Shown here in pieces: positions 4,273-44,203 of a stretch of DNA of 52,639 bases. Origin of the DNA: a virus (lineage: Duplodnaviria; Caudoviricetes); IMG/VR virus record IMGVR_UViG_3300017740_000007, positions 1 through 52,639 of that record; one strand, 5' to 3'. The number at the start of each line of letters is the position of its first letter. Position 1 is the first letter of the stretch. A program made the translations under genes and the position numbers. The notes beneath the pieces are model-generated. The model was not told the DNA's origin and did not search any database. It worked only from the letters and a program-made list of their open reading frames with translations.

Positions 4273-5868
4273 TTAATTTTTATCCTCGTAAGTCCTAGCC
4301 ATAGTTATAATAGCATTGGTAGAAAGAATTGTTACTGCTACAGACACTGCGTTCTGCAATGCCGACTTAGTTACTTTTAACGGGTCAATAACACCCAACT
4401 TATACATATCTCCCCACTTGCCTTCTTTTACATCGAACCCATTGTTGTATCCGATTTTGTTTATTTCAACAGAAGCCTCATATTGACCTTCATATTTTAT
4501 TCCTGCGTTCTCCCATATTTGTTTTAAAGGAGCACGAAGTGCTCTCGCTAAAATTTGTTTAGCTACAGTATCATCACCTATATTATAGGATTCCTGCATT
4601 AAAGCTGAACCACCACCCGGAAGTATACCTTCTTCTAAAGCTGAGCGTACTGCACATACTGCATCATCAATCCTATCATAAAGTTCTTTTTGTTCTAGGT
4701 CAGTTTGACCTCCAACATAAATAACACCTACACCACCTGTGAGTGTTGCAATCCTTGATAGTATAAACTCTGCATTGTTTTTATCTGATTCTCTTTTGTG
4801 TGCTTCTTTTAATTCTTTAATTCTTTTATAGATTTCGCCATCTCCAATAACATCATCTTTAATGATGACGGTTGAGTCACGACCAACTATCACCTTAGCA
4901 CAGTGACCCAAATCTTCTAACGTCATCAAGCTTAAATCATCACCGGTCTTTTCACTATAGTAAGTGGCACCAACACTTAAAGCAATGTCTTGCATTAGTT
5001 CGTGTTGTTTGTATCCAAATGATGGGGGTCCAATAGTACAAAGCTTTAATCCGTTCTTCATTACATTCGCAGCTAGAGTGTTTGTTACATTAGCTGAGGT
5101 TGGTGCAATAATTAATAATCTTTTGTTTTCTGAGATTACAGGTTTTAAAACATTCTCTATGTGTAGTAGGTTTTCAATAGGTGCATCACTAACTAGGATA
5201 TAACAATCTTCTAGTATACACTCATCTTTCTTTTGGTTGTTTACAAACAAAGGTGATTCATAACCTCTTTCAACCTTTAGTCCATTTGTAGATTCATAAT
5301 ATGTTTCTGATGTTTGAGACCTATCAATAGTAACCAATCCGTTTATACCTACCTTTTTATATACGTCTGATATAATAGCACCCAACTCTTTATCGTTGTT
5401 TGCTGATATAGTAGCAACGTCTTTTAATTTTTTTTGTGTAACTTTTGTCGATTTCTTTTTTAAGTTATCGCATACAGTTTCTGTTAGAGAAACTAATTCT
5501 CTTAATACTGATGTTTTATTTTCAGTTATAAGTTCTGCACCTGCTTTGACTAAAGCTTCTGTAAGAACAATTGCAGTTGTGGTTCCATCACCTGCTGAGG
5601 TTGCAGTTCTTTCTGCTGCCTCTTTCATCATCTTCACCGCAAGGTGCTCGGTGGGGTCTATAAGTGCAACTGACTTTGCAACTGTTACTCCGTCTTTAGT
5701 AACTGTTATTCCGTGTGTGTGTTGTGGGGATTCTATTAGAACGGTTTGACCGGCAGGTCCTAGTGTAGACTTTACTGCAGAAGATAATGTTTCAATTCCT
5801 TTGTATAATTTCTTTCTACCCTCTTCATCGAACAATAAGTTCTTTGGAGTATATCCTATATTAGACAT
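4273..5868 (-). CDS. groEL: Chaperonin GroEL (phage-encoded)
   Basis: VKSTLGP, VTKDGVTVAK, AGDGTTTA, EEGILPGGG, GVIDPLKV. Confidence 0.96.
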   Translation of the reverse strand: MSNIGYTPKNLLFDEEGRKKLYKGIETLSSAVKSTLGPAGQTVLIESPQHTHGITVTKDGVTVAKSVALIDPTEHLAVKMMKEAAERTATSAGDGTTTAIVLTEALVKAGAELITENKTSVLRELVSLTETVCDNLKKKSTKVTQKKLKDVATISANNDKELGAIISDVYKKVGINGLVTIDRSQTSETYYESTNGLKVERGYESPLFVNNQKKDECILEDCYILVSDAPIENLLHIENVLKPVISENKRLLIIAPTSANVTNTLAANVMKNGLKLCTIGPPSFGYKQHELMQDIALSVGATYYSEKTGDDLSLMTLEDLGHCAKVIVGRDSTVIIKDDVIGDGEIYKRIKELKEAHKRESDKNNAEFILSRIATLTGGVGVIYVGGQTDLEQKELYDRIDDAVCAVRSALEEGILPGGGSALMQESYNIGDDTVAKQILARALRAPLKQIWENAGIKYEGQYEASVEINKIGYNNGFDVKEGKWGDMYKLGVIDPLKVTKSALQNAVSVAVTILSTNAIITMARTYEDKN

Positions 5869-6132: not shown

Positions 6133-6206
6133 GCACCTATAGCTTAATTGGATAAAGCAACTGCCTTCTAAGCAGTAGAGTCTAGGTTCGAGTCCTAGTA
6201 GGTGTA
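6133..6206 (+). tRNA. tRNA-Arg (anticodon TCT); CCA not encoded
   Basis: Acceptor GCACCTA/TAGGTGT, D arm GCTT/AAGC, anticodon arm ACTGC-CTTCTAA-GCAGT, T arm CTAGG-TTCGAGT-CCTAG. Confidence 0.95.
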
Positions 6207-6207
6207 C

Positions 6208-6736: not shown

Positions 6737-6752
6737 TTGTCTTCAAAGACAC
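6737..6752. repeat. 16-bp palindrome copy 1 (one mismatch)
   Basis: TTGTCTTCAAAGACAC, intergenic. Confidence 0.85.
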
Positions 6753-7657: not shown

Positions 7658-7673
7658 GTGTCTTCAAAGACAC
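7658..7673. repeat. 16-bp palindrome copy 2
   Basis: GTGTCTTCAAAGACAC, intergenic. Confidence 0.95.
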
Positions 7674-7690
7674 AAAAAACCACAGATAAA

Positions 7691-8638
7691 ATGATAAACG
7701 AAATCACATACACAAATTCAAACGAATCTCAGAGAGGAAGAATGTCTCGTTACCATTCTTCTCCTCAGCCAAGAGAGATGCACAAAGGTGCTAAGAATAC
7801 TGATATCGCAAATCTAAAGACTACCAAGAAACGTAATCTTTTAGTAGATGAGAATGGAGACCACAAGTCTAAGTTCACTATCGGTATTGAAGTTGAAAAG
7901 AACAGATTAAGTTCTAGAGCAGTGACTGAATATCCTTTGTTCAAAGGATTTGAAAGAGATAGTTCTTGCGGTTATGAAGCTATAACTAATATCTTACCAT
8001 TGCTACCTAGCGGTAAATGGAGAAACAAAGTTTTCAATATGATGTTTGAAGCTAGAAAAATTATTGAAGACCAATACTCTCCAAGTGACTACAGATGTGG
8101 TGGTCACGTTACATTAGGTGTTGAGGGAATGAATGGTCAACAGATTATGAAAGCAATCAGAAAGAATTGTGGAATACTACATTCTTTATTCTTTAAAAGA
8201 CTTAAGAATGGATATTGCAAGAACAATCTAACAATGCTACCATACGATGAAGAAATGATGAATGGTGGTGGTAGATACCAATTCTGTTTAGATAAAGGTA
8301 ATCTAATCGAGTTTAGAGTTGTATCTCGTTTTCAATCGGTAAAGCAAATGATGAGAAGATACGAGTTGTTCTACGAGTTACTTGACTTTTCAATTAACAA
8401 TCCAAATGGAAACCACAATACTTTTCTTAAGAAAATTACACCAATCATTAAGTCTATGTACAATGGCGATATGGACAAGGTAAACGAAAAACTTGAGTTG
8501 GCTAAGACATTTAGAAAGATGATATTAACCAACAAAGTAAGTAGACCAATTATTGACTATGTTGACCCAATGAGAAGACTTGATGCACAGAAGTGGTACG
8601 ACAGAGAGTTACTCAGAAATGGGTACAGAGCAATCTAA
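7691..8638 (+). CDS. Putative amidoligase (COOH-NH2 ligase, Amidoligase_2-like)
   Basis: FTIGIEVE, DSS..YE, CGGHV, IEFR motifs; ATG 7691 preferred over the GTG inside the palindrome. Confidence 0.75.
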   Translation: MINEITYTNSNESQRGRMSRYHSSPQPREMHKGAKNTDIANLKTTKKRNLLVDENGDHKSKFTIGIEVEKNRLSSRAVTEYPLFKGFERDSSCGYEAITNILPLLPSGKWRNKVFNMMFEARKIIEDQYSPSDYRCGGHVTLGVEGMNGQQIMKAIRKNCGILHSLFFKRLKNGYCKNNLTMLPYDEEMMNGGGRYQFCLDKGNLIEFRVVSRFQSVKQMMRRYELFYELLDFSINNPNGNHNTFLKKITPIIKSMYNGDMDKVNEKLELAKTFRKMILTNKVSRPIIDYVDPMRRLDAQKWYDRELLRNGYRAI

Positions 8639-8651
8639 TCTAAAAGGGGTA

Positions 8652-8667
8652 GTGTCTTTAAAGACAC
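8652..8667. repeat. 16-bp palindrome copy 3, within an extended hairpin 8645-8674
   Basis: AGGGGTA-GTGTCTTTAAAGACAC-TACTCCT. Confidence 0.95.
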
Positions 8668-8673
8668 TACTCC

Positions 8674-8724
8674 TCTGTCTGAGGATGAGTGTCCTCACTG
8701 ATGAGTTCAAAAGAACGAAACAGA
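8674..8724 (+). ncRNA. Type III hammerhead ribozyme; predicted cleavage after C8679
   Basis: TCTG-TC | stem I TGAGGAT-gagt-GTCCTCA | CTGATGA | stem II GTTC-aaaa-GAAC | GAAA-CAGA; all core nucleotides and three stems present. Confidence 0.93.
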
Positions 8725-8752
8725 AACATTAATTAATTTAAATTCAATCAAG

Positions 8753-8989
8753 ATGAAAAATCAAATCAGAAATTATGCAGAAACAATTGTTTATGTATCA
8801 GTAACCTTAGGAGTCTTCTCAATGGTAGGTAGACTATTAGTCCACATTCTTTTTAACGATGCTAGAATGCTATTACAAAGCGTGAGTGGAGCAGTATCAA
8901 TGCTAGTTGTATGTGCGTTCTTATTGTTCTGTATGTATGCGACAAGTCTACTTATTATAGCTGACATAAAAGAGAGACACAATGCATAG
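8753..8989 (+). CDS. Two-TM membrane protein
   Basis: Two hydrophobic segments; first ORF after the ribozyme. Confidence 0.7.
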   Translation: MKNQIRNYAETIVYVSVTLGVFSMVGRLLVHILFNDARMLLQSVSGAVSMLVVCAFLLFCMYATSLLIIADIKERHNA

Positions 8990-9156: not shown

Positions 9157-9513
9157 ATGTATAAAGTAACATTACAATTCGATACACATAAGATAACTTA
9201 TGGAACGAACAGAGGGCAGTGGGTCTTAACTAAAGAGTTCAATGACCTGAAACACTGCAACAATTTCATAGACTATATATGCCGAACCAAAGGTTATAGC
9301 TTAGATGAATTATGGTACGAATCAGGATACCCTTTTAAAGAGGGAGATGATTATTGGACAATCGAAAGCGGAACGAAGTTGGTGCGGTCTTGTTGGGATG
9401 ACCAATCAGAAGAATTGTTTGACCCGAACAAAATATATTTCACTAGCGAAAAAAGAGCAGAGGAATATAAAGAGAGTATGAAAGATGTAACAATCATAAA
9501 TCTAAGACAATGA
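9157..9513 (+). CDS. Hypothetical protein
   Basis: ORF track, operon context. Confidence 0.7.
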   Translation: MYKVTLQFDTHKITYGTNRGQWVLTKEFNDLKHCNNFIDYICRTKGYSLDELWYESGYPFKEGDDYWTIESGTKLVRSCWDDQSEELFDPNKIYFTSEKRAEEYKESMKDVTIINLRQ

Positions 9514-10028
9514 AAAAATTAATATTTATATCAGCATTATCTGTGGTTGGATATGTGGGTAGTGATGTGTCTTCAAAGACACTAACTATCCAAGCAGAAG
9601 AAGTTCAAAAGACAGACTCTGTTCTAGTGGTAAGGGAGGAAGTAGTTCCTCCCAAGCCATTGGCGATAGACACATTGCTAGTTGCAATGATGTATGTAGA
9701 ATCTAGACTAGACTCAACGGCATATGCAAAGAATGAAAATGCCGTAGGAGTTTTGCAGATAAGACCAATAATGGTTAGAGAAGTAAACAGAGTTCTAAAA
9801 AAGATGGACAAGGAAGAAAGATATACATTAAAAGACAGATGGAGTTTAGTGAAGTCAGTCGAGATGTTTAATATAATCCGAGACTATCATCACAAAGACT
9901 CAAGCTATGAAACCATAGCAAGATGTTGGAATGGTGGAAGGAGAGGTGATAGAAAAAAATCTACACTTGTGTATTGGGAACGAGTTCAAATACAAATAAA
10001 TAATATCAATCAAATTTTAAATAAATAG
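9510..10028 (+). CDS. Secreted lysozyme-fold protein (SLT/destabilase-like)
   Basis: Signal-like N-terminus; MYVES, AVGVLQI, ARCWNGG. Confidence 0.75.
   Translation: MKKLIFISALSVVGYVGSDVSSKTLTIQAEEVQKTDSVLVVREEVVPPKPLAIDTLLVAMMYVESRLDSTAYAKNENAVGVLQIRPIMVREVNRVLKKMDKEERYTLKDRWSLVKSVEMFNIIRDYHHKDSSYETIARCWNGGRRGDRKKSTLVYWERVQIQINNINQILNK
9567..9582. repeat. 16-bp palindrome copy 4 (inside CDS, VSSKT)
   Basis: GTGTCTTCAAAGACAC. Confidence 0.95.
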
Positions 10029-10030
10029 TT

Positions 10031-10330
10031 ATGACAAACAAAGAACAAATAATCAAAGAGTTAAAAAGAAGAATGCAGATAGCTAGAGACACTCAAGCTA
10101 TTGGCAGAGAGAAATACCTAGCAACATTAATACAAGGTGTGCAGAATGAATTCAAACCTGCGTATGACGATGAGGGAAAAAAGTTTAGCACCTGCTTTGA
10201 CAGTATGGAAGTAAGCGGAAACTTTTCAATGCAGTTGAGTTGGTGGAATAATTTTGCAGACTATGTGCAAGAACATAGAAACACTTGCTACAACAATGCT
10301 TGTGAATACGCAGATGAAAAAGAAATATAA
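10031..10330 (+). CDS. Hypothetical protein
   Basis: ORF track. Confidence 0.7.
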   Translation: MTNKEQIIKELKRRMQIARDTQAIGREKYLATLIQGVQNEFKPAYDDEGKKFSTCFDSMEVSGNFSMQLSWWNNFADYVQEHRNTCYNNACEYADEKEI

Positions 10331-10338
10331 GATTAGAC

Positions 10339-10369
10339 TTGCGTATGTCTAAATTTAGTCTTATATTTG
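10339..10369 (+). promoter_or_regulatory. Bacteroidota-type promoter
   Basis: TTG-N20-TATATTTG. Confidence 0.7.
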
Positions 10370-10395
10370 TCCAATCAATTATTAATCAGAGGTCT

Positions 10396-10411
10396 GTGTC
10401 TTCAAAGACAC
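10396..10411. repeat. 16-bp palindrome copy 5 (in the 5' leader of the GATase gene)
   Basis: GTGTCTTCAAAGACAC. Confidence 0.95.
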
Positions 10412-10432
10412 TCCTCACAAATCAAATCAAAT

Positions 10433-11506
10433 ATGTGCGTAATTATTATTAAGCAGAAAAACAATGTGATGACTGAAGAAATAGCCAAGACATCATCACG
10501 AATCAATCCTCACGGATTGGGAATTATTTGGCTAGACACTTTTGAAGTAGAGTATTACAAATCAAAAGACTATCGTAAACTACTAACCAAGCGACCATTC
10601 ATTGCACACTTTCGTTATGCAACAAAAGGTAAAGTCAACAAAGCCAACACGCATCCATTCATATGTGGTAACAACAAAGATGAATACCTAATGCACAATG
10701 GTACTATCAAAGGTATGGGTACAGATGAATGTTGTGATAGTAAAGAGTTAGCTTGTCACTTAGGTAGTCTTAATCGTAGAGATTGGAAAAAAGAATTGGA
10801 GCAATATGACTCACGATTTGTTTCAGTCAATGTTCGTACTCGTTCATTTCAAATCTACAACAGAAACCTATATACTTATAGGGATGGAATCTGGTATTCA
10901 AAAGCCAATGTATTACAAGACAATCTTATCGCAGTGTATGGTACACTAAAGAAAGGTTTCGGTAACTACTATTCATACCTAACTAATGCAAAGCATTTAG
11001 GTAGAGGTAAGACTCAAGACAAGTATCCTTTGTTGGTTGAGGGGTTACCTTATATGGTAGACAAAAAAGGTGTGGGTCACAATGTGGTGGTTGATGTGTT
11101 CAAGGTTAGCGATATGCAACTAAAGAATATTGACCAACTTGAAGGACACCCACGTTGGTACAAGCGAAAGCAAATACCAATCAAGTTAAAGAATCGTACT
11201 CTTAATTGTTGGTTGTACTTTAATCCAAAGGATGTAACAAACAAAGAGTATCACGAATCTTTTGAAAGAACTATTCAGCCAAGAAAATTATTTACGTTTG
11301 AAGATGTTCAGCCAAGTTATGATACCACTGAGTATCACGAGGCAATTGATATAGGTTGGGATGACAATGACTTTCCAACAGACCAAACACCTACCTGCGT
11401 AGATTGTTTCAATGACTTGGAACACGATGCATTCCACAACTATTACTGCTCATCTTGTGGTGGTTGGTTTAAAGAAGATGAGGTTTTAAAATTTAATCAA
11501 GACTAA
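10433..11506 (+). CDS. Class II glutamine amidotransferase fused to gamma-glutamylcyclotransferase (AIG2/GGCT-like), with C-terminal Zn ribbon
   Basis: Start reassigned to MCVIII (Ntn Cys2); NPHGLG, HFRYAT, NTHPF, HNGTI; then VYGTLKKG...LEGHP.WYKR; CxxC...CxxC at the end. Confidence 0.85.
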   Translation: MCVIIIKQKNNVMTEEIAKTSSRINPHGLGIIWLDTFEVEYYKSKDYRKLLTKRPFIAHFRYATKGKVNKANTHPFICGNNKDEYLMHNGTIKGMGTDECCDSKELACHLGSLNRRDWKKELEQYDSRFVSVNVRTRSFQIYNRNLYTYRDGIWYSKANVLQDNLIAVYGTLKKGFGNYYSYLTNAKHLGRGKTQDKYPLLVEGLPYMVDKKGVGHNVVVDVFKVSDMQLKNIDQLEGHPRWYKRKQIPIKLKNRTLNCWLYFNPKDVTNKEYHESFERTIQPRKLFTFEDVQPSYDTTEYHEAIDIGWDDNDFPTDQTPTCVDCFNDLEHDAFHNYYCSSCGGWFKEDEVLKFNQD

Positions 11507-11519
11507 TAATTATAAATCA

Positions 11520-11540
11520 GAGGGGTGGAATCCACCCCTC
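11520..11540. other. Perfect GC-rich inverted repeat without U-tract
   Basis: GAGGGGTGGA-A-TCCACCCCTC. Confidence 0.75.
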
Positions 11541-22858: not shown

Positions 22859-25800
22859 TTAGTTTCCAAATTTTTGACTACCAAAGGTATCCTTACCTTT
22901 CTTCTTTCTTTTCTTTTTACCAAAGCCATCACCACTACCAAAGCTTCCTGAACCAAATGAAGAGCCTGATGTGTAATTCATTTCTTTATCTTTCAGTAAT
23001 CTATTTAATTCAGCTTCTCTTCTTTTCTGTTCTTTCTTTTGTTGTTCAGATTCATAGTCAGGAGAGTTAGGACCAAAGGTGTCATACCATAATCTATAGT
23101 TATATCTTTTCATTTCGCTTCTTGAACTATAGTTGCCAAGCTTTTCTTTTTCTATAGCAGCAGCCTTTCTTTCCTGTGCTTGTTTCTTATTCATCTCACC
23201 ATATAAACTTCTCAACACCAAACGTCTTACATCTTTATACATTGGTATGAATCCTGAGTTACCTAATAATTCAAGAGGTAGTCTATACATTAACTCATCT
23301 TCTTGTCTTTCCTGTGCTTCAACAGTTTTCTTTGGAGCAGACGTAGCTTTCTTAACAATAAAGTCTGCGGTCTTAACTGCAGGTCCTAAAGAAGCTGCCA
23401 TATTAGTTAGTATATCTCCAAGAGATGAACCTCTTCCATCTTTATTTTTAGGTACAACTTGATAAGATAAACCATCTTTATACACATCGTATTCTCCGTC
23501 TCTTAAGAAGTCTAAGAATTCTTTATTGAACTCTTCAATACCCATATTGAGTATGGCTTTAGTTGCATTACCAAAGTCTCTACCTACAATTAACCCTAAC
23601 ATTGATGAAGCAACTGCTTGTCCAAGTTTCTTCTCTAAATCTTTTGGCTCTTCTTCTTCTCCTGCAATACTTGCAAGTGCCTCACCTAATACTTGTGCCA
23701 TCATAGTATACATAATCATACGAGTAGTTGAACCTGCAAGTAGTGCGGCTCCTTTACGTTTACTTAAATGACCTCGACCAATTGCATTAACAATACCTGT
23801 TCTTGCAGTTACAAATTCATATATTAAGAATGTAGTCATAAAGGTATTGAATGCATTGAATGCAGTTTTGAAACCACTATCCCCCGGCTTTCTCGTTCCT
23901 TTTAATATTCCTAAAAATGGATTAGCAGTAGAACCTGTCATTACAGAAGTTTCGTCAGCAACCTCTGTTGCTTTAGCTAAAGCTTCTGCATTGTCTGCCA
24001 TATACTTAGAATCATTTGCTGCAATCTTATCCATATCAGGTTCTATACCTGTTATCTTTTTAAACTCACTTGCAAAAGAACCAAACCACATAGGTCTCAT
24101 TACAATCTTATCAGGTGTTGATATTAATCCATCGGCTAATGTAGCCACACCACTCTGATATTTTTTACCTGACCTATTCCAAATTTGTACAAGTTTATTT
24201 TTAAATCTACCCATTGCTCTACCGCCCTTGATACCTTCTGACTCCTTCATTATATTGGTATCAATCATTCTACCTGACATATCTTCATTAGGATATATAC
24301 GGTTAGTCTGTTTACTTTTAAGATTCTCCATAGCTTTTGGAGCGGCATCACTATTTAAAAACTTAACACCAAACTTAGAGCCTTTAACAAAAGCAACAGG
24401 ATTAGTTATCATTGCAAAAGCTGCGTTAGAAGTAAGTTCCGCAATCCACCTAGTACTACTTGCAAGTATAGCACGATACCCGTTTTTCTTTAACCAATTC
24501 ATTGCTTCTTCTGCAATAGTGGTTTGTTGGTATGCAGTGGTTAGCATATTTTCTACAACCTCTTCATAAGCATCTCTAATAGCATTGAACTTTTCTCTAT
24601 CTTTAGAATCCATTCTAGCCTTATCACCTTTCAATCTTTGTTCCGCTACATTTAAAGTTCTTCTTGCGGTTCTAATTGGTTCAGTCATATGGAAATCTAA
24701 CAACACTCCTTTTGCTCCTCTAGTAGCTGATGCATACACATCAAAGTTTAAAGCCGACACAACACCTTCTCTCTTGATTAAAGACTTTGCTTTAGTAGAA
24801 CCTCTCAAACCATTCATATATTGTTGTATAAATGATTCATTACTGTTAGGGTCTAGACCTCTATCTGTTACAACATTTAAGTGTACATAATTATTTCTTG
24901 GTTTAATTCCTGTACCTCTAATAATAGATGCAGTCTGAACTGCCATTGGACCTAGTTCTGAATTTACTTCTTGTATAACCTTAATAGAATTTTTCTCTGC
25001 TTCATTAAAACTATTATAAAGTTTCTCTAGATTTATTTCTCCCGTTTCTTTATCAGTAAACTTTTCTAAAATCTCTGCTAACATTTCAGAGTCTTGTTGA
25101 CTGAAGGTGGTTTTATCTGTATCAATAGCTTCAATAGTCTTTTTAATATATGCTGCAGCTTGATGTCTTGTCTCAGGGTTACCCAAGTTAGAATCGTGCT
25201 CAAGTTGAATCATATAAACCATCTGCTTAAACTTAGACATCAAAGTCTTGTTTGGATTTTGTTTAAATGATTTAGCAACCGCAGCCTCGGCAGCATCTAT
25301 CTTACCTCTAAGTCTTTTAAACTGTGACGTAAATAATTCTTTTGCTTTTGCTGATGGATTAAATAAAGTATTAAATATAGGTTTTGATTTAAAGTTACCG
25401 AACACTTGGTCAACATAGAACAATGGGTTTCTTCTAATGGCTTCTAGAACAGAACCTTTTCTAGTGAATATACTTTTAAACTTAGCATACATTTTAGTTA
25501 CAGGAAGTAGCTTAGAACCGCTTATTCCACCGGCAAGTTCTTTACCCTTTAACTGTGCATCCATCTTCTCATTCATTACCTGAACAAGATGTGGTGTGTA
25601 GCCATTGTTTATATTATTGTATAGTTTATCTATTTGTTTTAAATCCTCAAGTGAAAGATTCTCTATAGCTTCAATGTTATTGATTAAACTTTCAAACATC
25701 GCAGCAACCTTTCTTTCAAACTTACTAGGAAGTTCAGAGATTTTTAAAGCAGGTAGTTTCTTTATGTTAGCTATAACCTCTTGTCTTTCAGCTTCTATTT

Positions 25801-28800
25801 CTGCTTCTGTCTTTTCAACCTTTTGTTTCTTAGGAAGTATTTCATTCTTATACTTTTGCATTACCTCTAAGTCTATCTCATCAATGATACCATCATTAAG
25901 CATAGCCTTAATTGTTTTAGCGTAATCAACCTTACCGTCTTTATCAACAACTTTATTTTCAAATGCAGAATATTTTTCCTGTAGTTCAGGAACTTTAGAG
26001 TACTCTACATCAACCGCTTCTAATATTCTTTCTGTAATTTTTTCAACCTCAGCTACTGCAGATGGATTTAGAATTGCTTTCCTTTCTCCAAACTCTGTAA
26101 CTAAATCTATATACTCTTGGAATACAGACTCAGGAATCAATGAAGCTTTCATAGAAAAGATTCTATTTAACTGTGTATTAATAGCATCAGCAATACCTAT
26201 TTTAGTTCTTACGTTTTTTAATGCTTGTTTACGTTGCTTGTTTGCTACTGCAACTTCTTGTGCGTAATTAGCATTCTTAAATACTCTACGCATATATTCA
26301 ACAAAACTGTCAATAGATGCCTCACTTAACATATTAACCTTAGTAAACCTTTTTATAATAGCCGATGCTTGTTTAGAAGTTATCTTGCCCTGTTGAGCCA
26401 TCTCTCCTATTTGTTGTGCTAGTTGTCTACTCGCTTCAACAAATGCTTGTATAGCATTTTTTGCTCCACGATTTAAAGATTTAATCTGTTCTGCTAAAGC
26501 TTGTTTCTCTGTAAGAGTAATTGTTTTAGGATTTATTTTACCAAACAATAATCGTTTTGCAGACGGAGCCTTCTTTTCTTTTTGCCCAAATCTTTTTCTT
26601 AACTCACGAATCATCTTCTCTCTTTGAACGTCAGTTGAGTCTTTATAAAGTCTTGTACCTTTTAAATATTCTAAAGCTGCATTAAATATTTTAGTTGGAC
26701 TTGTACTTTCTTTTGTATTTCTAGCCTTAACCTTTTCTACAATACCATCTATTTCTCCCATCACCCTATCAAAACCTTTAGCAAACTTCTCGCTTACTTT
26801 TGATTTTTGATTTGCTTTAGGTCCTGCTTTTTCAAAAGCTACTACTATATCTTCTTGTGCTACACCTCTTCTATTAAGAACAGTTCTAATTGCAACCTCT
26901 GATATTCCTTGTCCTCTTGCATCTTTTATAAATGCAGCAACATCATCACCCAAAGAAAATCTCGGCATCATACCTTGAGATTCTTTAGCTGCATCAAACT
27001 TTATTTTTGATTTTGCATCAACTGCTTTACCTGCAAATAAATCAGCAAGACCTGTATTAATAAAGTCTTCTAAAGACATTGACTCTATTTCTTTTGTCTT
27101 AAGACCTTCAAGCGTAGTAAATTTTTCTTTAATATATTTAAAGGTGGCATTCATCCACTCTTTAAACCTAGACTTCTTTGCAGCATTAACAATAGTCTCT
27201 CCTTTATTAGCCATCATTTCTACCAATGCTTCTTCTCTAGCTAATTTGTTGTCGCCATATTTTTCTATAGCTGCTTTTAATTCAGGAGTTCCCTCAATTA
27301 ATTTTAATCCTCTTTCTAAAAGTTTAGTCCCCTTTCTTCCACTAGCCTTTGACCTTAAGAAGTCAATCCATATATGTCCGAACTCGTGAATAGGTGTACC
27401 TAAAGAAGCTTGGTCAGGATTTATAAATACTTTACCATCCTTAGTCATACCAAGAATAGTCTTTCCTTTTGAAACCTTGGTTCTAACACCCGGTTCTTTT
27501 AGCATAGCATCAAACTCCTGTTGTGTAGCCACTACTGTAACACCCGGAAATGCAAATCTAAACTTAGCAGCCAACTGTTGCATATCAGTTATACCTTCAG
27601 TTTGAACTGATGCACCCTGAAAAGCATTGTCACTAGGAGCGGTTCCCATAGTTTGAGAAGCAACATTTCTTTGTGAAGGTAATCTCCCTTTCTTATCTTT
27701 TTTAAATACTCTATTTGATTTTACTTTCCACTCAGGGAATACATCCATTCCACTTGTTGGATTTTTAATAAGCTTAATCAATCTTCCTTTAGGACCTGAA
27801 CCGTAGTTAGGATGGTCTATATCTATAACACCACCATCTAATACATCAATACCAACAATTGAAACCACGTCTCCTTTATTGGTTTTCATCATAGAGGGTT
27901 CGCCTATTGCTTGGTAAATATTTTTAGCTAAAAAGTTTTCTGCTCCCTTACCATCTGTACCGTTATACAATGCGTTTAACATTCGGTTTGATATACTACC
28001 ATCTTTACTTTTTTGTACAGACTTAGTTGTCTCAGGAGAAGTAATAAAGCCAAACAATTCTGCTCTCTCATCAAGAGTTAATGTGTTCTTGACATCTCCT
28101 TTTGCTCTAGCATTTGCATCTGCTACAACCTCATCCATCAACTGACCTAGTGTGTTAATGTTTTTATCTTCAATAAACTGTATTAGCTTAGAGGTTTTAC
28201 CAAACTTACCTGCCTTATTATTTAAATCTGAAACAAGTTCTAGTAAAGCTGCTCTTTGATTTTCTTGAGATTGAGCATTAATTTCAGGTGATAGGTATCT
28301 GTAAACAAGTTCGTTTGAATTTACTGCATCATTACCCATACGAACAATAGCCATTGGTATATGTCCTTTAGGTAATCTTCCTTCATCCCACAACCTATCA
28401 AATAAATCTTTATTCTTTTGATATAATTTTACTGCATTATCATACTGACCTTGTGATTTATCTTTAGCAACACCTGCCCAAGCCGCTTTAACTTTAGCTA
28501 ACGCATTAAACATTAGACCACCTTTAGCATTCATATCGTTGCCTCTTGAGTCTTTTATAGTTCCACCTGCAGCTATATCTGATACACCTGTAATCATAGG
28601 TATACCATTAAACTCTTCGATAGTTCCAACCATATCATCTTGGCTTTCAAAACCAAGGTCATTTATTTCGTCTTCGTTTAGATTAGTAGAAGAATTACTA
28701 TCCTCAAAAGGATTAACTGTTGTTGTAGTTTCACCTGTAGGATTTGTGAAGTTTACTTCAGCTTCATCCATTTGATTCATTTCTTCTGTGATTGCTTCTG

Positions 28801-30778
28801 AATTTGAGGGGTCAGCAACAAAAGCAGACTCTCCTTCTTCTGCAACACTAAATCTAGTTTCACCTTCTAGGTTACCCTCTAAATTATCTATATCTTGCTG
28901 AAGTATTTGAGATGCTCTTTCATCAACCATTTCATTGGTCAATTCGTATTCTTTAATACCTTGTTCAGCCATCTCATTTTCCATTTGCTCAATGGCTCTG
29001 TCTTGTAATTCTAATTTTTCATCAGGAGATAAAGCATTATATTCTTCTATACTTGATTTAACTGATTCAGCTACATCAGATACAACTTGTTCTGTTTCAG
29101 CAGCCGCTTCATCAGCTAGTTGGTTTTCTTGTAAGTCTACTATTTGTTTTTTTAAATCAGCAATTTTTTTCTTACCCGTTACTGTACCTAATACTCTACC
29201 CTCTAGTTCTTGAACCTGTCTTTCTAAATCTACAATAGCATCCACCGTTGGACCGTTTAGGTCAGGGTTTGCCGCCATAACAGATTCCTTAGTTCTACCT
29301 GCTAGAATTTTATCTTGTAATTTTTGTGCTCTACCTTCAAAGTCATTATCTATTTGTATTTTAAAATTAGGAGCGGTTAATTGCTCATAAGTCATACCAT
29401 CAATAACTTTATCTATTTCTTCTACAGTAGCTTTCTTTCCGTTAATTTTATATTTAGGGTTTTGATATCTAACTGCAATTAAATCCTTTACAGAACCCGG
29501 TGCTTCAGCAATACCTTCTAGTAGTATCTCACCGGTATCAAATTCTTGTCCTTGCTCACCGTATATATTAGTAGCTGCAATACCTGCGGTTTCACCAATA
29601 GAACCACCTACTGATTCAACTCCCATAGCACGACCAATTGCTTTTCTTTTTAATGCTCTTGATGCAGATTTAGTTCCTGCGGCACCTGCTTTTGTAAGTA
29701 ATGGTTTTGCTACCTTACCACCTAATCTACCTGTTAATGCATCTATAGTACCGATTGCCATACCTCTTGCGATGGCATCAAATCTTAGTTCATCAACAAC
29801 CTCTTCATTAGATAGTAATTCTCTTACGTTATCTGCAGTTAATTCTTTTCCTTGAACTTCAAGTCTTTCTTTTAATAACTCTCCATAAGTTAAACCTGTT
29901 TCTAAAACTGTACTAGCTGCGGCAAAAGCATAAGGTAAACTAGCTGCGGCACCTGCAACTGCACCCGGTGCTGCTCCAACACCACCTGCTAATGCACCTG
30001 TACCTGCACCATAAGCAGTACCTGCTGCAATAACTGCACCTCCTGCTGCTGCTGAATCTTCATTAGCCATAGCCGAAAAAGAACTAGCTAATACTTCAGG
30101 AATAACACTAGGGTTTAATACGAGTCCCTTTATTGTTCCCCATACACCCTTACCTTCTTCTTCATAAATTCTTTGATAATCTTGCATTTCATCAGAAGGA
30201 CCTAATTGAGTAGCCTTTTGACTTTTAGCTATAAATTCTTGTATGTCTTCATAGGTAGCAGAAGTACCACCCATAAGTAAATCGTTACCACTTTCTGCAA
30301 TCTGACCATTTTGAAAACCGGCATCAATTGAACGAGCCATATCATCAATAAAATCTCCTACACCTACAGGACTAATAGCATCTATACCCCTTAGTATATC
30401 GCCAAATGTTCCTTGAAAGTAATCAACCTCCTCAGAAACGGGAGACGGTGAAGTTGTAGCATTTGATGTGCCATCCGAAAAACTTGAAACGAAATCCGGA
30501 GAATCTTTTTTTTTTAATGAGCCTTGCTCAACATAAGATTTAAATTCCTCTACACCATAGCGGTTTACTAAATCTCCTTCAGAGTAAACTTTACCATTAG
30601 GTGTTTCATAAAAATGACCACCATCTTGAAAATTTAATTCAGGTGTTTCTTCTTCTACAAATTCAGTTAACTGCCCTTCGTTTACAAGTTGGTCAAACCC
30701 TTCATCACCATATCTTTCTAGTGCTTCTGATTGACTAATCTTATAACCATTGGGTGTTACATAAAAAATTTCATCCAT
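22859..30778 (-). CDS. Giant internal virion/ejection protein with zincin-like metallopeptidase motif (polyvalent-type)
   Basis: 2639 aa; GKVFINP...TPIHEFGHIW...EEALVE; Gly/Ala-rich hydrophobic segment near the N-terminus; last gene of the ejection cluster. Confidence 0.75.
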   Translation of the reverse strand: MDEIFYVTPNGYKISQSEALERYGDEGFDQLVNEGQLTEFVEEETPELNFQDGGHFYETPNGKVYSEGDLVNRYGVEEFKSYVEQGSLKKKDSPDFVSSFSDGTSNATTSPSPVSEEVDYFQGTFGDILRGIDAISPVGVGDFIDDMARSIDAGFQNGQIAESGNDLLMGGTSATYEDIQEFIAKSQKATQLGPSDEMQDYQRIYEEEGKGVWGTIKGLVLNPSVIPEVLASSFSAMANEDSAAAGGAVIAAGTAYGAGTGALAGGVGAAPGAVAGAAASLPYAFAAASTVLETGLTYGELLKERLEVQGKELTADNVRELLSNEEVVDELRFDAIARGMAIGTIDALTGRLGGKVAKPLLTKAGAAGTKSASRALKRKAIGRAMGVESVGGSIGETAGIAATNIYGEQGQEFDTGEILLEGIAEAPGSVKDLIAVRYQNPKYKINGKKATVEEIDKVIDGMTYEQLTAPNFKIQIDNDFEGRAQKLQDKILAGRTKESVMAANPDLNGPTVDAIVDLERQVQELEGRVLGTVTGKKKIADLKKQIVDLQENQLADEAAAETEQVVSDVAESVKSSIEEYNALSPDEKLELQDRAIEQMENEMAEQGIKEYELTNEMVDERASQILQQDIDNLEGNLEGETRFSVAEEGESAFVADPSNSEAITEEMNQMDEAEVNFTNPTGETTTTVNPFEDSNSSTNLNEDEINDLGFESQDDMVGTIEEFNGIPMITGVSDIAAGGTIKDSRGNDMNAKGGLMFNALAKVKAAWAGVAKDKSQGQYDNAVKLYQKNKDLFDRLWDEGRLPKGHIPMAIVRMGNDAVNSNELVYRYLSPEINAQSQENQRAALLELVSDLNNKAGKFGKTSKLIQFIEDKNINTLGQLMDEVVADANARAKGDVKNTLTLDERAELFGFITSPETTKSVQKSKDGSISNRMLNALYNGTDGKGAENFLAKNIYQAIGEPSMMKTNKGDVVSIVGIDVLDGGVIDIDHPNYGSGPKGRLIKLIKNPTSGMDVFPEWKVKSNRVFKKDKKGRLPSQRNVASQTMGTAPSDNAFQGASVQTEGITDMQQLAAKFRFAFPGVTVVATQQEFDAMLKEPGVRTKVSKGKTILGMTKDGKVFINPDQASLGTPIHEFGHIWIDFLRSKASGRKGTKLLERGLKLIEGTPELKAAIEKYGDNKLAREEALVEMMANKGETIVNAAKKSRFKEWMNATFKYIKEKFTTLEGLKTKEIESMSLEDFINTGLADLFAGKAVDAKSKIKFDAAKESQGMMPRFSLGDDVAAFIKDARGQGISEVAIRTVLNRRGVAQEDIVVAFEKAGPKANQKSKVSEKFAKGFDRVMGEIDGIVEKVKARNTKESTSPTKIFNAALEYLKGTRLYKDSTDVQREKMIRELRKRFGQKEKKAPSAKRLLFGKINPKTITLTEKQALAEQIKSLNRGAKNAIQAFVEASRQLAQQIGEMAQQGKITSKQASAIIKRFTKVNMLSEASIDSFVEYMRRVFKNANYAQEVAVANKQRKQALKNVRTKIGIADAINTQLNRIFSMKASLIPESVFQEYIDLVTEFGERKAILNPSAVAEVEKITERILEAVDVEYSKVPELQEKYSAFENKVVDKDGKVDYAKTIKAMLNDGIIDEIDLEVMQKYKNEILPKKQKVEKTEAEIEAERQEVIANIKKLPALKISELPSKFERKVAAMFESLINNIEAIENLSLEDLKQIDKLYNNINNGYTPHLVQVMNEKMDAQLKGKELAGGISGSKLLPVTKMYAKFKSIFTRKGSVLEAIRRNPLFYVDQVFGNFKSKPIFNTLFNPSAKAKELFTSQFKRLRGKIDAAEAAVAKSFKQNPNKTLMSKFKQMVYMIQLEHDSNLGNPETRHQAAAYIKKTIEAIDTDKTTFSQQDSEMLAEILEKFTDKETGEINLEKLYNSFNEAEKNSIKVIQEVNSELGPMAVQTASIIRGTGIKPRNNYVHLNVVTDRGLDPNSNESFIQQYMNGLRGSTKAKSLIKREGVVSALNFDVYASATRGAKGVLLDFHMTEPIRTARRTLNVAEQRLKGDKARMDSKDREKFNAIRDAYEEVVENMLTTAYQQTTIAEEAMNWLKKNGYRAILASSTRWIAELTSNAAFAMITNPVAFVKGSKFGVKFLNSDAAPKAMENLKSKQTNRIYPNEDMSGRMIDTNIMKESEGIKGGRAMGRFKNKLVQIWNRSGKKYQSGVATLADGLISTPDKIVMRPMWFGSFASEFKKITGIEPDMDKIAANDSKYMADNAEALAKATEVADETSVMTGSTANPFLGILKGTRKPGDSGFKTAFNAFNTFMTTFLIYEFVTARTGIVNAIGRGHLSKRKGAALLAGSTTRMIMYTMMAQVLGEALASIAGEEEEPKDLEKKLGQAVASSMLGLIVGRDFGNATKAILNMGIEEFNKEFLDFLRDGEYDVYKDGLSYQVVPKNKDGRGSSLGDILTNMAASLGPAVKTADFIVKKATSAPKKTVEAQERQEDELMYRLPLELLGNSGFIPMYKDVRRLVLRSLYGEMNKKQAQERKAAAIEKEKLGNYSSRSEMKRYNYRLWYDTFGPNSPDYESEQQKKEQKRREAELNRLLKDKEMNYTSGSSFGSGSFGSGDGFGKKKRKKKGKDTFGSQKFGN

Positions 30779-36198: not shown

Positions 36199-39100
36199 TT
36201 AACAAGACCCATTAGTCCCTATTGAATTTAATCCCGGATTAACTGTTCCTGTTTGTGCACATATTGTTTCTTGGTCATATCCTCCTACACCACCTATTGC
36301 TCCACCTGCTGAAGTTCCATCACACGCAGTGTATGAAAAACTTTGTGCTTGTGGTGAAGATGTAGATAATGTATATGATGTACAACTAACTCCACTTGGG
36401 TCAGGGATATTACAATGAGTTGTGTCACCACAAACATATGATACACCTGTTCCATAAAGTGTTCCGGTAGGAGTTAAAACAGATGGTGCTAAAATTTCAC
36501 CACATCTAATTGTTCCACCTACAGTGCTTTGATATTGAACCACATCCCCAACACTGTAAAGACTATTAGTGTCTTCAATAATTACAAGGTTACCGGTATC
36601 ACAATCAGAAAGTCCCCAAATAGTAGCCGAAGGACCTGACCCTTCACAAGAACAACAAGCTTCTGTTGGAGATGCTCCATAACACAAATCTAATGGTGTA
36701 CTTGTTCTAAAGTCCCAAATTAAATATAAATATTGTCCTTGGTTTGGCATTGTAAAGTCCGCATAATATGCAGTATTACCATTTGCCGGTGGGTTTATTG
36801 GTGTAGCCTGTGAAGATGCCGCTAACAATGCGAGAATGTCTGCAGGATTATTACCATATAATGTATCTGTTCTTAAATACTTAAAGTCATCTTGAACAGG
36901 ATTAAATACATAGTCATCTGCTCCAAGAAGATTAGAGTACATAGAAACAGTAGAGCCATTAGTTGGTATAACACCACCTCCTTGTGGTCCTGTTATATCT
37001 TCATATAAAGAAACAATAGGATAAGTACCACCTATCATTGTAACTTCTTCAGATTGAAGAGGAGATATAAAAGGTCCATCAACCCAACGATATTCATCGT
37101 GTATACTTAAACCTGTATCAGCATCACTATTTAAGTGTACCAATTTAATTGTAATTATCTCAGCTTGAGGACAATTAACAGTTAATGTAATAGAAGCATA
37201 ACCCGATGTTTGTATTGTTATCTGTGCTTCTTGATTTAAGATTAAGTTTTTATTAAAACTTAAAGTGCCTCCTGTAGAAACATTTCCTGTAGTAACATTC
37301 TGTAAACCATATTCAGCATCAATTTTAAAAGTTCCTACTAAAGAAGAAGAATCTACCGTATAGTCAATATCAACTGTCCCTATAGTTTCACCTACATCAA
37401 CGCAATATGTAAACACTTCTTTTTGAGTTTGTAAAAGAACTTGTTGTGTTATACCACATTGAGTACAATCAATCTCTAAAGGAATTTCTGTACAATTAGA
37501 TGCTAATACAAACTCATTCATATAAGTATCGTACCCTCCTAATTTTTGAGTAAACAAACTATCATTAAATAAATCTCTAAACCAAGGTCTCATACCTTCT
37601 GCAGATATGGCTTTTAATCTTTCGTTTTGTGCTGAGGTTCCTGTAAGTTGCAAAACAACTCCTCGTTTACCATCAGTAAAATATTTGTCAGGTCCATATT
37701 GAGCAAAGCTTTCAGGGTTATGGCTTATACCATACTCTTCTATCCTAGCTATTTGTGTTCCTAAAACTTCAGGTACAGAGGTTAATGCACTTCCACCTGC
37801 AGCATCTGAAAGCAAATTCTTTCCTGATAATACATAAGATATTTTATCTTCTTGTAATGTAAGTATATCTGTCTCTCTTGCAAATAATTTTTGAACAGGT
37901 CCAAATGATTGTTCTAAAGCTTTAAAGTTTAGTAACCCTGCATTAAACTCGTTTAGTTTGTTTACGTTAGATTCTGCATTATATACACCACTATAAGTTA
38001 TATCGGCAAACCTATGCTCTTCTTTGTAGGTTTGAGCGGTAGTTGTAAATGCTCTGTTACCCAATACCATTTCTTTACCAATAATAGAATCTTGAATTCT
38101 ATAACTTTCAACTCCATTTCCAAATGAAAAACAATTAAAGAATGCAGTTTTTATAATAGCAGGAGAGTTTGTTGCAATATCTTGGTCTTGCTTATTTCCA
38201 GAATGTTCACCGGTAGCAGTGTTGATTGCATAAGATTGAGATGACTCATACCACAAATCAGGAGAAGCATCTTTTGGTAATGTTTCAAATACAGTTAATC
38301 CACTTGCTCTAATTACCTCAATATCAACTCTACATCTAGATTCCTTTTTACTACCACCATATCCCTTCGATGCTTTAAAAACAAAATATGTTCTTCCTCC
38401 GGATTGATAAAAGTTTGAGTAAACATTACCAACGCTACAAGGTCTATTACCTGCAGACTGATAGTTATTACTATAATTAGGACCGTCAACTCCTGTACCG
38501 TCATCATTTGCTAAACCTGATAAAGCACCGGCAATATTATCTCCTTCAAACCAATTTTTAAAATTACTATATTCCTGAGAAGCGGTAAAAGTTGTATCAA
38601 CTTGCCATAGTTTTTTAGGAACATTTCCAAATAAAGAATCTATGTTACCCCTTCTGTAACTTCTAAGTTTTATATTAACTTTAGTACCTGCAGGTAAACT
38701 GTAATCTATATAACTACCGGGGTTGTTTGGGTCTTCTGTATCTACAGGGTAGTTAATAGACCTACAACCACTTCCGTTATTATTTTTTTCTCCATAAGCA
38801 ACAACCGGTAAATCTCCTACCTCAGTAGAAAAATTATTCGCTCTTAGTTTCATATAAGTACCGGCAGGTACAGGGATATCGTTTCCATTAACATCAATCG
38901 GAGCAGGGTCCAAAAAGTCTTTTGTTTTGGCATCTTTTTCAAGAACCGTTGTATATGTACAACTATCTCTTGGACCTTGAGTGTCTACTTTTACAATTAA
39001 TTCATCACCAAGTTCTATTTTTTGTGAGTTCTGACCTTCTAATAAAAAGTAATCTGCTCCACTAGCAGGGTCTCTGAAAAAGAACTGTGAATATATTGTA

Positions 39101-44172: not shown

Positions 44173-44203
44173 AAAAAAAGGGAGTGTCTTTGAAGACACT
44201 CCC
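44173..44203 (-). terminator. Capsid gene terminator built on 16-bp palindrome copy 10 (44184-44199)
   Basis: GGGA-GTGTCTTCAAAGACAC-TCCC-TTTTTTT on the minus strand. Confidence 0.88.

Follow-up and report, generated by a model that had tools for sequence, protein, structure and literature searches.

A hammerhead motif between two phage cistrons

The window considered here, that is, the whole stretch of DNA analysed, comprises 52,639 base pairs (bp) of an IMG/VR virus contig (record IMGVR_UViG_3300017740_000007; Duplodnaviria, Caudoviricetes) estimated to be 88% complete. On its plus strand, a hammerhead ribozyme motif at 8672–8726 lies between two cistrons read in the same direction: an upstream open reading frame (ORF) of 326 amino acids (aa; 7658–8638, counted from the listed GTG, with its TAA stop at 8636–8638) and a downstream ORF of 78 aa (8753–8989, ATG at 8753) with two hydrophobic segments. 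A 13-bp hairpin closed by a UUAA loop (8645–8674, plus strand, as folded by RNAfold) begins 7 nucleotides (nt) past the stop codon and runs flush into stem III of the hammerhead; an A/U-rich leader of 28 nt, devoid of any Shine–Dalgarno-like run, follows at 8725–8752. The element had been picked out beforehand by a model reading the sequence alone (hereafter the original prediction), and every coordinate given there for the core and the hairpin is correct, including the start of the hammerhead at the last base of the hairpin; U8674 is thus shared by hairpin and stem III.

Read from its 5′ end, the motif consists of the 5′ strand of stem III (8674–8678) followed by C17 (8679), with the predicted scissile bond at 8679/8680; stem I (8680–8686 paired with 8691–8697, that is, six Watson–Crick pairs and U8686–G8691), capped by the loop GAGU; the catalytic core CUGAUGA from C3 to A9 (8698–8704), assigned by motif reading and by the Rfam alignment; stem II (8705–8708 paired with 8713–8716), with G10.1–C11.1 as closing pair and AAAA as loop; and the core GAAA (8717–8720), whose last base opens the 3′ strand of stem III (8720–8724). 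Both conserved core stretches of hammerheads, C3-U4-G5-A6-N7-G8-A9 and G12-A13-A14, are present; GUC at 8677–8679 is an N-U-H cleavage triplet (H not being G), with C8679 as the predicted cleavage residue; and the A15.1–U16.1 pair is formed by A8720 and U8678, a pair found in all 15 aligned sequences described below. Stem III (5 pairs) is open and stems I and II are capped, which is the type III topology. The window ribozyme and the Rfam family RF00008 (Hammerhead_3) share the core, the three-helix junction, the GUC site and the open stem III, whereas the stem II loop counts 4 nt (NAAA) in the subtype to which the window belongs and 8 nt in the Rfam consensus.

The Infernal search with Rfam models that the original prediction had named as a check gave a two-sided answer. 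RF00008 aligns end to end with 8672–8726 on the plus strand, with expectation values (E) of 2.1e-7 when the entire window is compared with all 4227 Rfam families, 9.7e-10 for a 241-nt search and 5.1e-11 for an own-genome search; the score of 47.5 bits nevertheless falls 1 bit short of the gathering score of 48.5, and at that threshold an Rfam scan of the window lists a tRNA only. The gathering score is a curated annotation threshold rather than a structural feature, and the Infernal alignment traces the shortfall to the shorter stem II loop. Infernal searches detected no second hammerhead anywhere in the window. Folding of 8636–8760 with RNAfold yields a minimum free energy of −35.5 kcal/mol (z −5.0 against 200 shuffles) and reproduces the hairpin together with stems I and II.

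Conservation in related phages

Homologues of the 326-aa ORF occur, at 51–99% identity, in 28 further viral contigs. A covariance model was built from 15 distinct sequences picked by a motif finder; such a choice favours pairing, and the stronger evidence comes from controls with slid partners and from changes on both sides of a pair. The model gives 33 full-length matches of 57–81 bits in the window and the 28 loci, on the gene strand every time, and leaves 4 of the 28 loci without a match. Synteny in relatives, which the original prediction had also proposed to examine, is thereby borne out: the same ribozyme occurs in 24 of the 28 related phage records of roughly 60 kb, with 1–3 copies in each, always in the sense strand and in intercistronic gaps, and it is present in 12 of the 15 records that are at least 90% complete.

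Standard pairs fill 99.6% of the cells in the 15-sequence alignment. Changes of both partners affect 10 of the 15 pairs, in 64 cells and in all three stems, and include all 6 modelled pairs of stem I. The covariation score of 0.744 compares with 0.225 in shuffles, none of 500 reaching the observed value, and with at most 0.154 when partners are slid, a control in which pairing amounts to only 38–50%. Over the same sequences the CUGAUGA core is invariant except at position 7. Also invariant are G8687 and U8690 of the GAGU loop, the topmost 5′ base of stem I (U8686) and A8710–8712 of loop 2, a pattern that would fit a constrained tertiary contact between loops 1 and 2, of the kind with which hammerheads cleave fast at low Mg2+. 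By these sequence comparisons, 8672–8726 is a genuine and complete type III hammerhead under selection, and its catalytic competence is predicted. A chance match, or a decaying, functionless hitch-hiker whose adjacency to a palindrome is coincidental, would agree with the score just under the RF00008 threshold and with the absence of the ribozyme from some relatives; such an origin is extremely improbable, being contradicted by the compensatory changes and the invariant core, by E values of 2e-7 to 5e-11, by the syntenic placement and by the one-sided enrichment of hairpins described below.

Some relatives depart from this consensus. A sub-variant has U opposite U at 10.1/11.1 instead of G–C, usually together with a GUA triplet, and its stem I covaries in several contigs; it is found at loci L006, L007 and L015 (4020–4074), L010 (3985–4038 and 6481–6535), L013, L021 (6652–6707) and L024 (6342–6397). 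At L004, U replaces A at core position 9. Variants with U–U at 10.1/11.1 and variants of position 9 are normally expected to be slow.

The gaps around the ribozyme are tight. That from the upstream stop to stem III measures 21–54 nt, essentially all of it hairpin, and the distance from the ribozyme to the next ATG is 15–45 nt in 25 modules. Modules follow the 326-aa ORF, an ORF of about 195 aa, or an ORF encoding a fused class-II glutamine amidotransferase and gamma-glutamyl cyclotransferase (GATase/GGACT, confirmed by tblastn). The ORFs after them are small (41–98 aa), usually a two-segment membrane protein where the 326-aa ORF comes first, and in most close relatives a homologous small membrane ORF stands directly after the ribozyme.

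For the 326-aa ORF of the window, the in-frame ATG at 7691 is a likelier start than the GTG at 7658, because the latter coincides with the first base of another palindrome copy. The original prediction had called this ORF an amidoligase, a label that finds no match in Pfam even at E up to 5, nor any in PHROGs; in one ESM-Atlas neighbour cluster of the protein, PF12224 (Amidoligase_2) is assigned to 12% of the members, and the label stays a weak lead only. The description of the downstream genes as membrane-protein and lysozyme-like holds for its first half, since the adjacent ORF looks like a small two-segment membrane protein, but the lysozyme-like half corresponds to a sub-threshold SLT match on a non-adjacent ORF (9510–10028). 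Searches of Pfam and PHROGs assign no family to the flanking ORFs. Near the 326-aa ORF, the window encodes the fused GATase/GGACT protein at 10367–11506, and the two genes may form a phage set that modifies peptides or metabolites; in the window's family, it is exactly at the 3′ ends of these two enzyme-like genes that ribozymes sit. After the GATase/GGACT ORF of the window, a 9-bp GC-rich hairpin (11520–11540) is followed by the leader of the next gene. The same junction bears a hairpin and a hammerhead at L010, L021, L023 and L024, and this difference suggests that ribozymes have been gained or lost beside pre-existing intercistronic hairpins.

From its protein similarities and gene layout, the phage is an uncultured relative of Elemovirus, a genus of podophages that infect Flavobacterium. 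Its primase shares 39% identity with that of Elemovirus over 40% of its length, and the arrangement of GroEL, early operon and giant structural proteins is common to both; GenBank holds a metagenomic relative, MW202828.1. Megablast and blastn searches of the locus against the phage collection returned no match, the links to Elemovirus and MW202828.1 being at the protein level only, and 14 DNA runs of metagenomes (marine, seawater and viral) contain near-identical DNA. A Bacteroidota host would fit the gene leaders, which are A-rich and lack a Shine–Dalgarno run. A sigma-70 promoter scan gave 51 sites against 45 expected and says little here, as it does not model the promoters of Bacteroidota, the probable hosts. 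The window further encodes a GroEL-like chaperonin (Cpn60, E 3e-55; 4273–5868, minus strand), a tRNA-Arg(TCT) (6133–6207, plus strand) and two giant ORFs of 2639 and 1614 aa (22859–30778 and 36199–41043, both on the minus strand) that have no Pfam family above threshold.

The hairpin on the 5′ side and the palindrome

In the window's family, nearly every ribozyme is preceded by a stable hairpin that ends 0–1 nt before stem III and is mostly built on a palindrome; unrelated hairpin sequences occupy this place at L008, L018, L010, L021, L025 and L028. A scan of IMG/VR for the core and stem II pattern of the subtype returned at least 119 viral stretches. Counts for this wider set rest on the 80 loci listed, where 130 model matches were obtained, of which the 121 scoring at least 40.4 bits were used and reduce to 106 distinct modules. 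With thresholds of our own choosing (a hairpin of −8 kcal/mol or lower, ending within 3 nt of stem III), a flush 5′ hairpin is present in 71% of the 106 modules and in 9% of 600 windows of 45 nt drawn at random from these loci, the modules being non-independent events, as sequences within a family are related. The association is confined to one side, a hairpin being present 5′ of the ribozyme in 75 of 105 cases and 3′ of it in 4 of 105, and it involves 64 distinct hairpin sequences among the matches listed. The ribozyme is on the same strand as the flanking open frames in 83 cases, on the opposite strand in 3 and unclear in 14, again among the matches listed; a listed locus holds up to 5 copies and never has them on both strands. 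GUC is the cleavage triplet in 72 of the 106 modules, followed by GUA (21), GUU (6) and AUC (2), with 5 other or misaligned. The motif, its conservation and covariation, its intercistronic placement in the sense strand and its association with a hairpin are established.

Multiple copies raise the question of whether ribozyme pairs excise gene-length RNAs, the ends being ligated into circles or spliced, with the single copy of the window as a remnant. Relatives with 2–3 ribozymes carry them 1–3 kb apart, other listed viral loci have up to 5, and this possibility is raised by Perreault 2011 (PMC3088659), where neither spliced nor circular products are reported as detected. Excision is nonetheless very improbable, given that a single copy is present in the window, as in 15 of the 24 relatives with a ribozyme, and that the sole joint seen in an RNA contig lies elsewhere: a contig of the RNA-library run X17 joins 9923 to 10284 on opposite strands, possibly through an assembly artefact or a rearranged variant.

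The sequence of the hairpin is free, as its 64 versions attest, and the hairpin therefore matters as a structure, of which the palindrome is merely the version favoured by one family. At the 27 of the 80 listed loci that encode window-like proteins, 50 of 58 modules have a hairpin and 49 have the palindrome; at the remaining loci, 25 of 48 modules have a hairpin and none has the palindrome. The suggestion in the original prediction that cleavage may be coupled to whatever factor recognises the palindrome is not upheld by these counts, nor by the use of other hairpins by some ribozymes within the family or by the many palindrome copies that stand without a ribozyme, including inside genes. The idea that the ribozyme needs recognition of the palindrome was rejected on the same figures (25 of 48 hairpins and 0 of 48 palindromes outside the family).

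The palindrome itself forms the core of the hairpin (8652–8667) and is one of 11 copies in the window, counted with up to 2 mismatches and compared with 0.01 expected. The 16-nt copies start at 6737, 7658, 8652, 9567, 10396, 13557, 14992, 16301, 20337, 44184 and 51334, and 7 of the 11 lie within the roughly 8.5% of the window that a crude ORF call leaves non-coding. Five complete relatives carry 9–19 copies each, with a core that is almost invariant even where proteins are 50–60% identical. Intergenic copies are often extended by complementary flanks of varying sequence, and some are followed by a U tract in the manner of an intrinsic terminator (for example, 44184–44199 read on the minus strand); other copies occupy conserved positions inside genes, and one reading frame is common to the copies at 9567 and 14992. 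The hairpin at 8645–8674 was considered as an intrinsic terminator in its own right and rejected, as the ribozyme follows it without a U tract and the terminator scan did not list it. Repetitive extragenic palindromic (REP) sequences stabilise the 3′ ends of messenger RNA (mRNA), and the palindrome resembles them in being short, much repeated, enriched between genes and able to form hairpins that could block 3′ exonucleases. Unlike REP sequences, it is borne by phages, has a strictly conserved 16-nt core, and includes intragenic copies as well as copies with a terminator-like U tract.

A structural role for the hairpin could take another form. It may serve mainly as a kinetic or structural helper of the ribozyme, stacking coaxially on the short stem III and insulating it from upstream RNA and ribosomes, with protection of RNA ends as a secondary effect. 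The 0–3 nt that separate the hairpin from stem III, the mere 5 pairs of this stem and the position of the stop codon 7 nt before the hairpin would all suit such a helper, while 29% of modules do without it. A comparison is offered by the synthetic insulator RiboJ, which in E. coli raises the downstream transcript about twofold and protein 2–10 fold (PMC6206723). RiboJ and the window module have a design in common, a type III-style hammerhead with one extra hairpin that gives the downstream gene a defined 5′ end. The extra hairpin of RiboJ lies 3′ of the ribozyme, whereas that of the window subtype lies 5′ and leaves the 3′ side bare (4 of 105 among the matches listed), which further argues against a helper. 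As the main function of the hairpin we regard such help as improbable; a protective role is compatible with it and both may hold.

Ribozyme-less relatives show other structured RNAs at the same junction. At L014 (3905–3955) and L017 (3918–3965), the palindrome is followed by an acceptor-like stem that encloses a canonical T-arm with the T-loop motif GGTTCGAGTCC. This tRNA-like element has only weak, partial matches in Rfam (tRNA-Sec, E 1.4; the T-arm of mascRNA, E 2.2) and could be a signal for processing by RNase P or RNase Z. At L009 (3955–4010) and L016 (3985–4035), a long hairpin has a conserved apical loop, an identical 18-nt 3′ segment and differing stems. Rfam offers no match to this unclassified structured RNA at E up to 0.5, and a two-part pattern search for it returned the same two contigs only; its 14-mer tail has at least 116 exact matches, and among the first 80 listed the element occurs in those two contigs only, with one evident chance match besides.

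A candidate type III hammerhead is also present in the cultured Flavobacterium phage vB_FspP_elemoE_10-3D (L031, 10143–10199; MT497078.1, 28912–28968, minus strand). The candidate combines a GUA triplet with the core CUGAAGA, scores 36–37 bits (E about 1e-7), lacks a flush hairpin and stands 15 nt before the first gene of a rightward operon. Across 68 records of Flavobacterium phages, the surrounding 111 nt show an identity of at least 99%, and no RNA feature is annotated there among the matches listed.

Proposed self-cleavage and the ends of operon mRNA

The reading that we favour, with a probability of about 70%, is that 8672–8726 is a self-cleaving type III hammerhead, carried in sense orientation by a transcript that is polycistronic and probably early, and that it forms together with the flush hairpin a cut-and-cap module that punctuates the operon mRNA. 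From the features set out above we infer cleavage in vivo, protection by the hairpin and an effect on expression. The nascent RNA would cut itself after C8679. The upstream product would contain the 326-aa cistron and end in the 13-bp hairpin with a 5-nt tail bearing a 2′,3′-cyclic phosphate; the downstream product would start with a 5′-OH on the folded ribozyme scaffold, followed by the 28-nt A/U-rich leader and the gene of the small membrane protein. The flush hairpin would shield the new 3′ end from 3′–5′ exonucleases, and it may also hold terminating ribosomes and upstream sequence off the ribozyme fold. The net outcome would be that stability and translation of the neighbouring cistrons are uncoupled without a protein nuclease. 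Terminator hairpins likewise give bacterial mRNAs a 3′ stem-loop that blocks 3′ exonucleases. As a type III scaffold, by its topology, stays wholly on the 3′ product, the 5′ product would otherwise be unprotected, and a capping role would explain why the hairpin is confined to the 5′ side, free in sequence and GC-rich. The operon-processing interpretation of the original prediction thus receives partial support at the level of sequence: the non-random linkage of hairpin and ribozyme fits the outcome proposed there, namely an upstream product whose 3′ end has a hairpin cap and a cyclic phosphate, and a downstream product with a structured 5′-OH end.

Several observations speak on the other side. 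In addition to the failure to reach the RF00008 threshold, the ribozyme is missing from 3 complete relatives and 1 fragment, and MW202828.1 carries at the same junction a hairpin alone, made of a related palindrome, without the ribozyme; the absence of the ribozyme from some relatives indicates that it is dispensable. The 29% of modules that lack a flush hairpin at threshold include the cultured Elemovirus candidate and those at L006, L007 and L015, where only a weak hairpin is seen. In Bacillus, the 5′-OH product of the glmS ribozyme is degraded and not protected, so that the effect on the downstream gene could be negative. Finally, an RNA-library contig (X17, 8606–8832) bridges the predicted site, which points to uncleaved RNA or contaminating DNA there. 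Four RNA-library runs cover parts of the region as assembled contigs, which can neither show RNA ends nor exclude DNA. In X15 and X16, which may be a single data set deposited in duplicate, a 433-nt contig starts at 8698, 18 nt 3′ of the site. These contigs are evidence neither for nor against cleavage.

The self-cleavage of glmS is also a parallel for another explanation, in which an active ribozyme down-regulates its surroundings: cleavage would expose the downstream message through its 5′-OH, or the upstream message, to decay and set the polarity of the operon. According to PMC6765202, processed transcripts could become more or less stable, and the roles of bacterial hammerheads are 'largely elusive', although bacteria and phages contain hundreds of them. 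The ORFs that follow the ribozyme are small, accessory and differ in identity. We consider down-regulation unlikely, since a GC-rich flush hairpin makes little sense on a 5′ product destined for decay, since the 3′ product would keep a compact ribozyme fold at its 5′ end, and since RiboJ raises expression in E. coli.

Processing of phage transcripts between genes has a protein-based counterpart. In phage T7, RNase III cuts between genes, so that the upstream mRNA comes to end in a hairpin. The T7 sites are likewise intercistronic, but here the nuclease would be the RNA itself, and the predicted ends are 2′,3′-cyclic phosphate and 5′-OH instead of 3′-OH and 5′-phosphate. As for hammerheads, type III is described as typical of infectious circular RNAs and type I as the usual DNA-encoded form in bacteria and phages (PMC13725137, 2026). 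The window ribozyme, by comparison, is DNA-encoded in a tailed phage, whereas type III usually occurs in viroid-like circular RNA. Hammerheads in phages and the processing hypothesis have been known since 2011: in Perreault 2011 (PMC3088659), prophage hammerhead arrays are reported to cleave both in vitro and in vivo, a role in cutting long phage transcripts down to gene-length mRNAs is proposed, and the 5′ end of a halovirus transcript maps within 3 nt of a hammerhead site. The arrays resemble the window's family in being intercistronic, in the sense strand and several to an operon, with the same proposed role. The words terminator, stem-loop and exonuclease are absent from the main text of that paper, so that the flush 5′ hairpin and its one-sidedness do not appear to be described there, and the host group differs, the window belonging with marine Flavobacteriia-type podophages related to Elemovirus. 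A literature search over main texts found no description of a phage hairpin–hammerhead module, nor any paper that mentions 'hammerhead' together with 'Flavobacterium phage'. Four features appear to be new: a type III subtype that is widespread among marine phages, its one-sided hairpin partner, the family-specific palindrome and the other structured RNAs at the same junction in ribozyme-less relatives.

A broader view may tentatively be put forward, which we regard as possible rather than probable: phages of the marine Bacteroidota type could use a modular 'RNA punctuation' at cistron boundaries, in which a capping hairpin independent of sequence and a type III hammerhead make up one interchangeable cassette. 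The elements of L014/L017 and L009/L016 could then serve as processing signals of another kind, such as ones read by RNase P, or represent a new ribozyme, and in the window's family the strictly conserved palindrome would also recruit a phage or host factor to the caps.

As standard annotation misses the ribozyme by 1 bit, the subtype, with its at least 119 viral stretches, is probably under-counted. The cultured Flavobacterium phages that carry a related candidate (68 records) provide a tractable phage–host pair, and the natural module lends itself to use in synthetic operons, as a part that insulates the genes on either side. For the phages themselves, a hairpin that is one-sided and independent of sequence amounts to a concrete design rule, which fits the mRNA-processing hypothesis and makes it testable.

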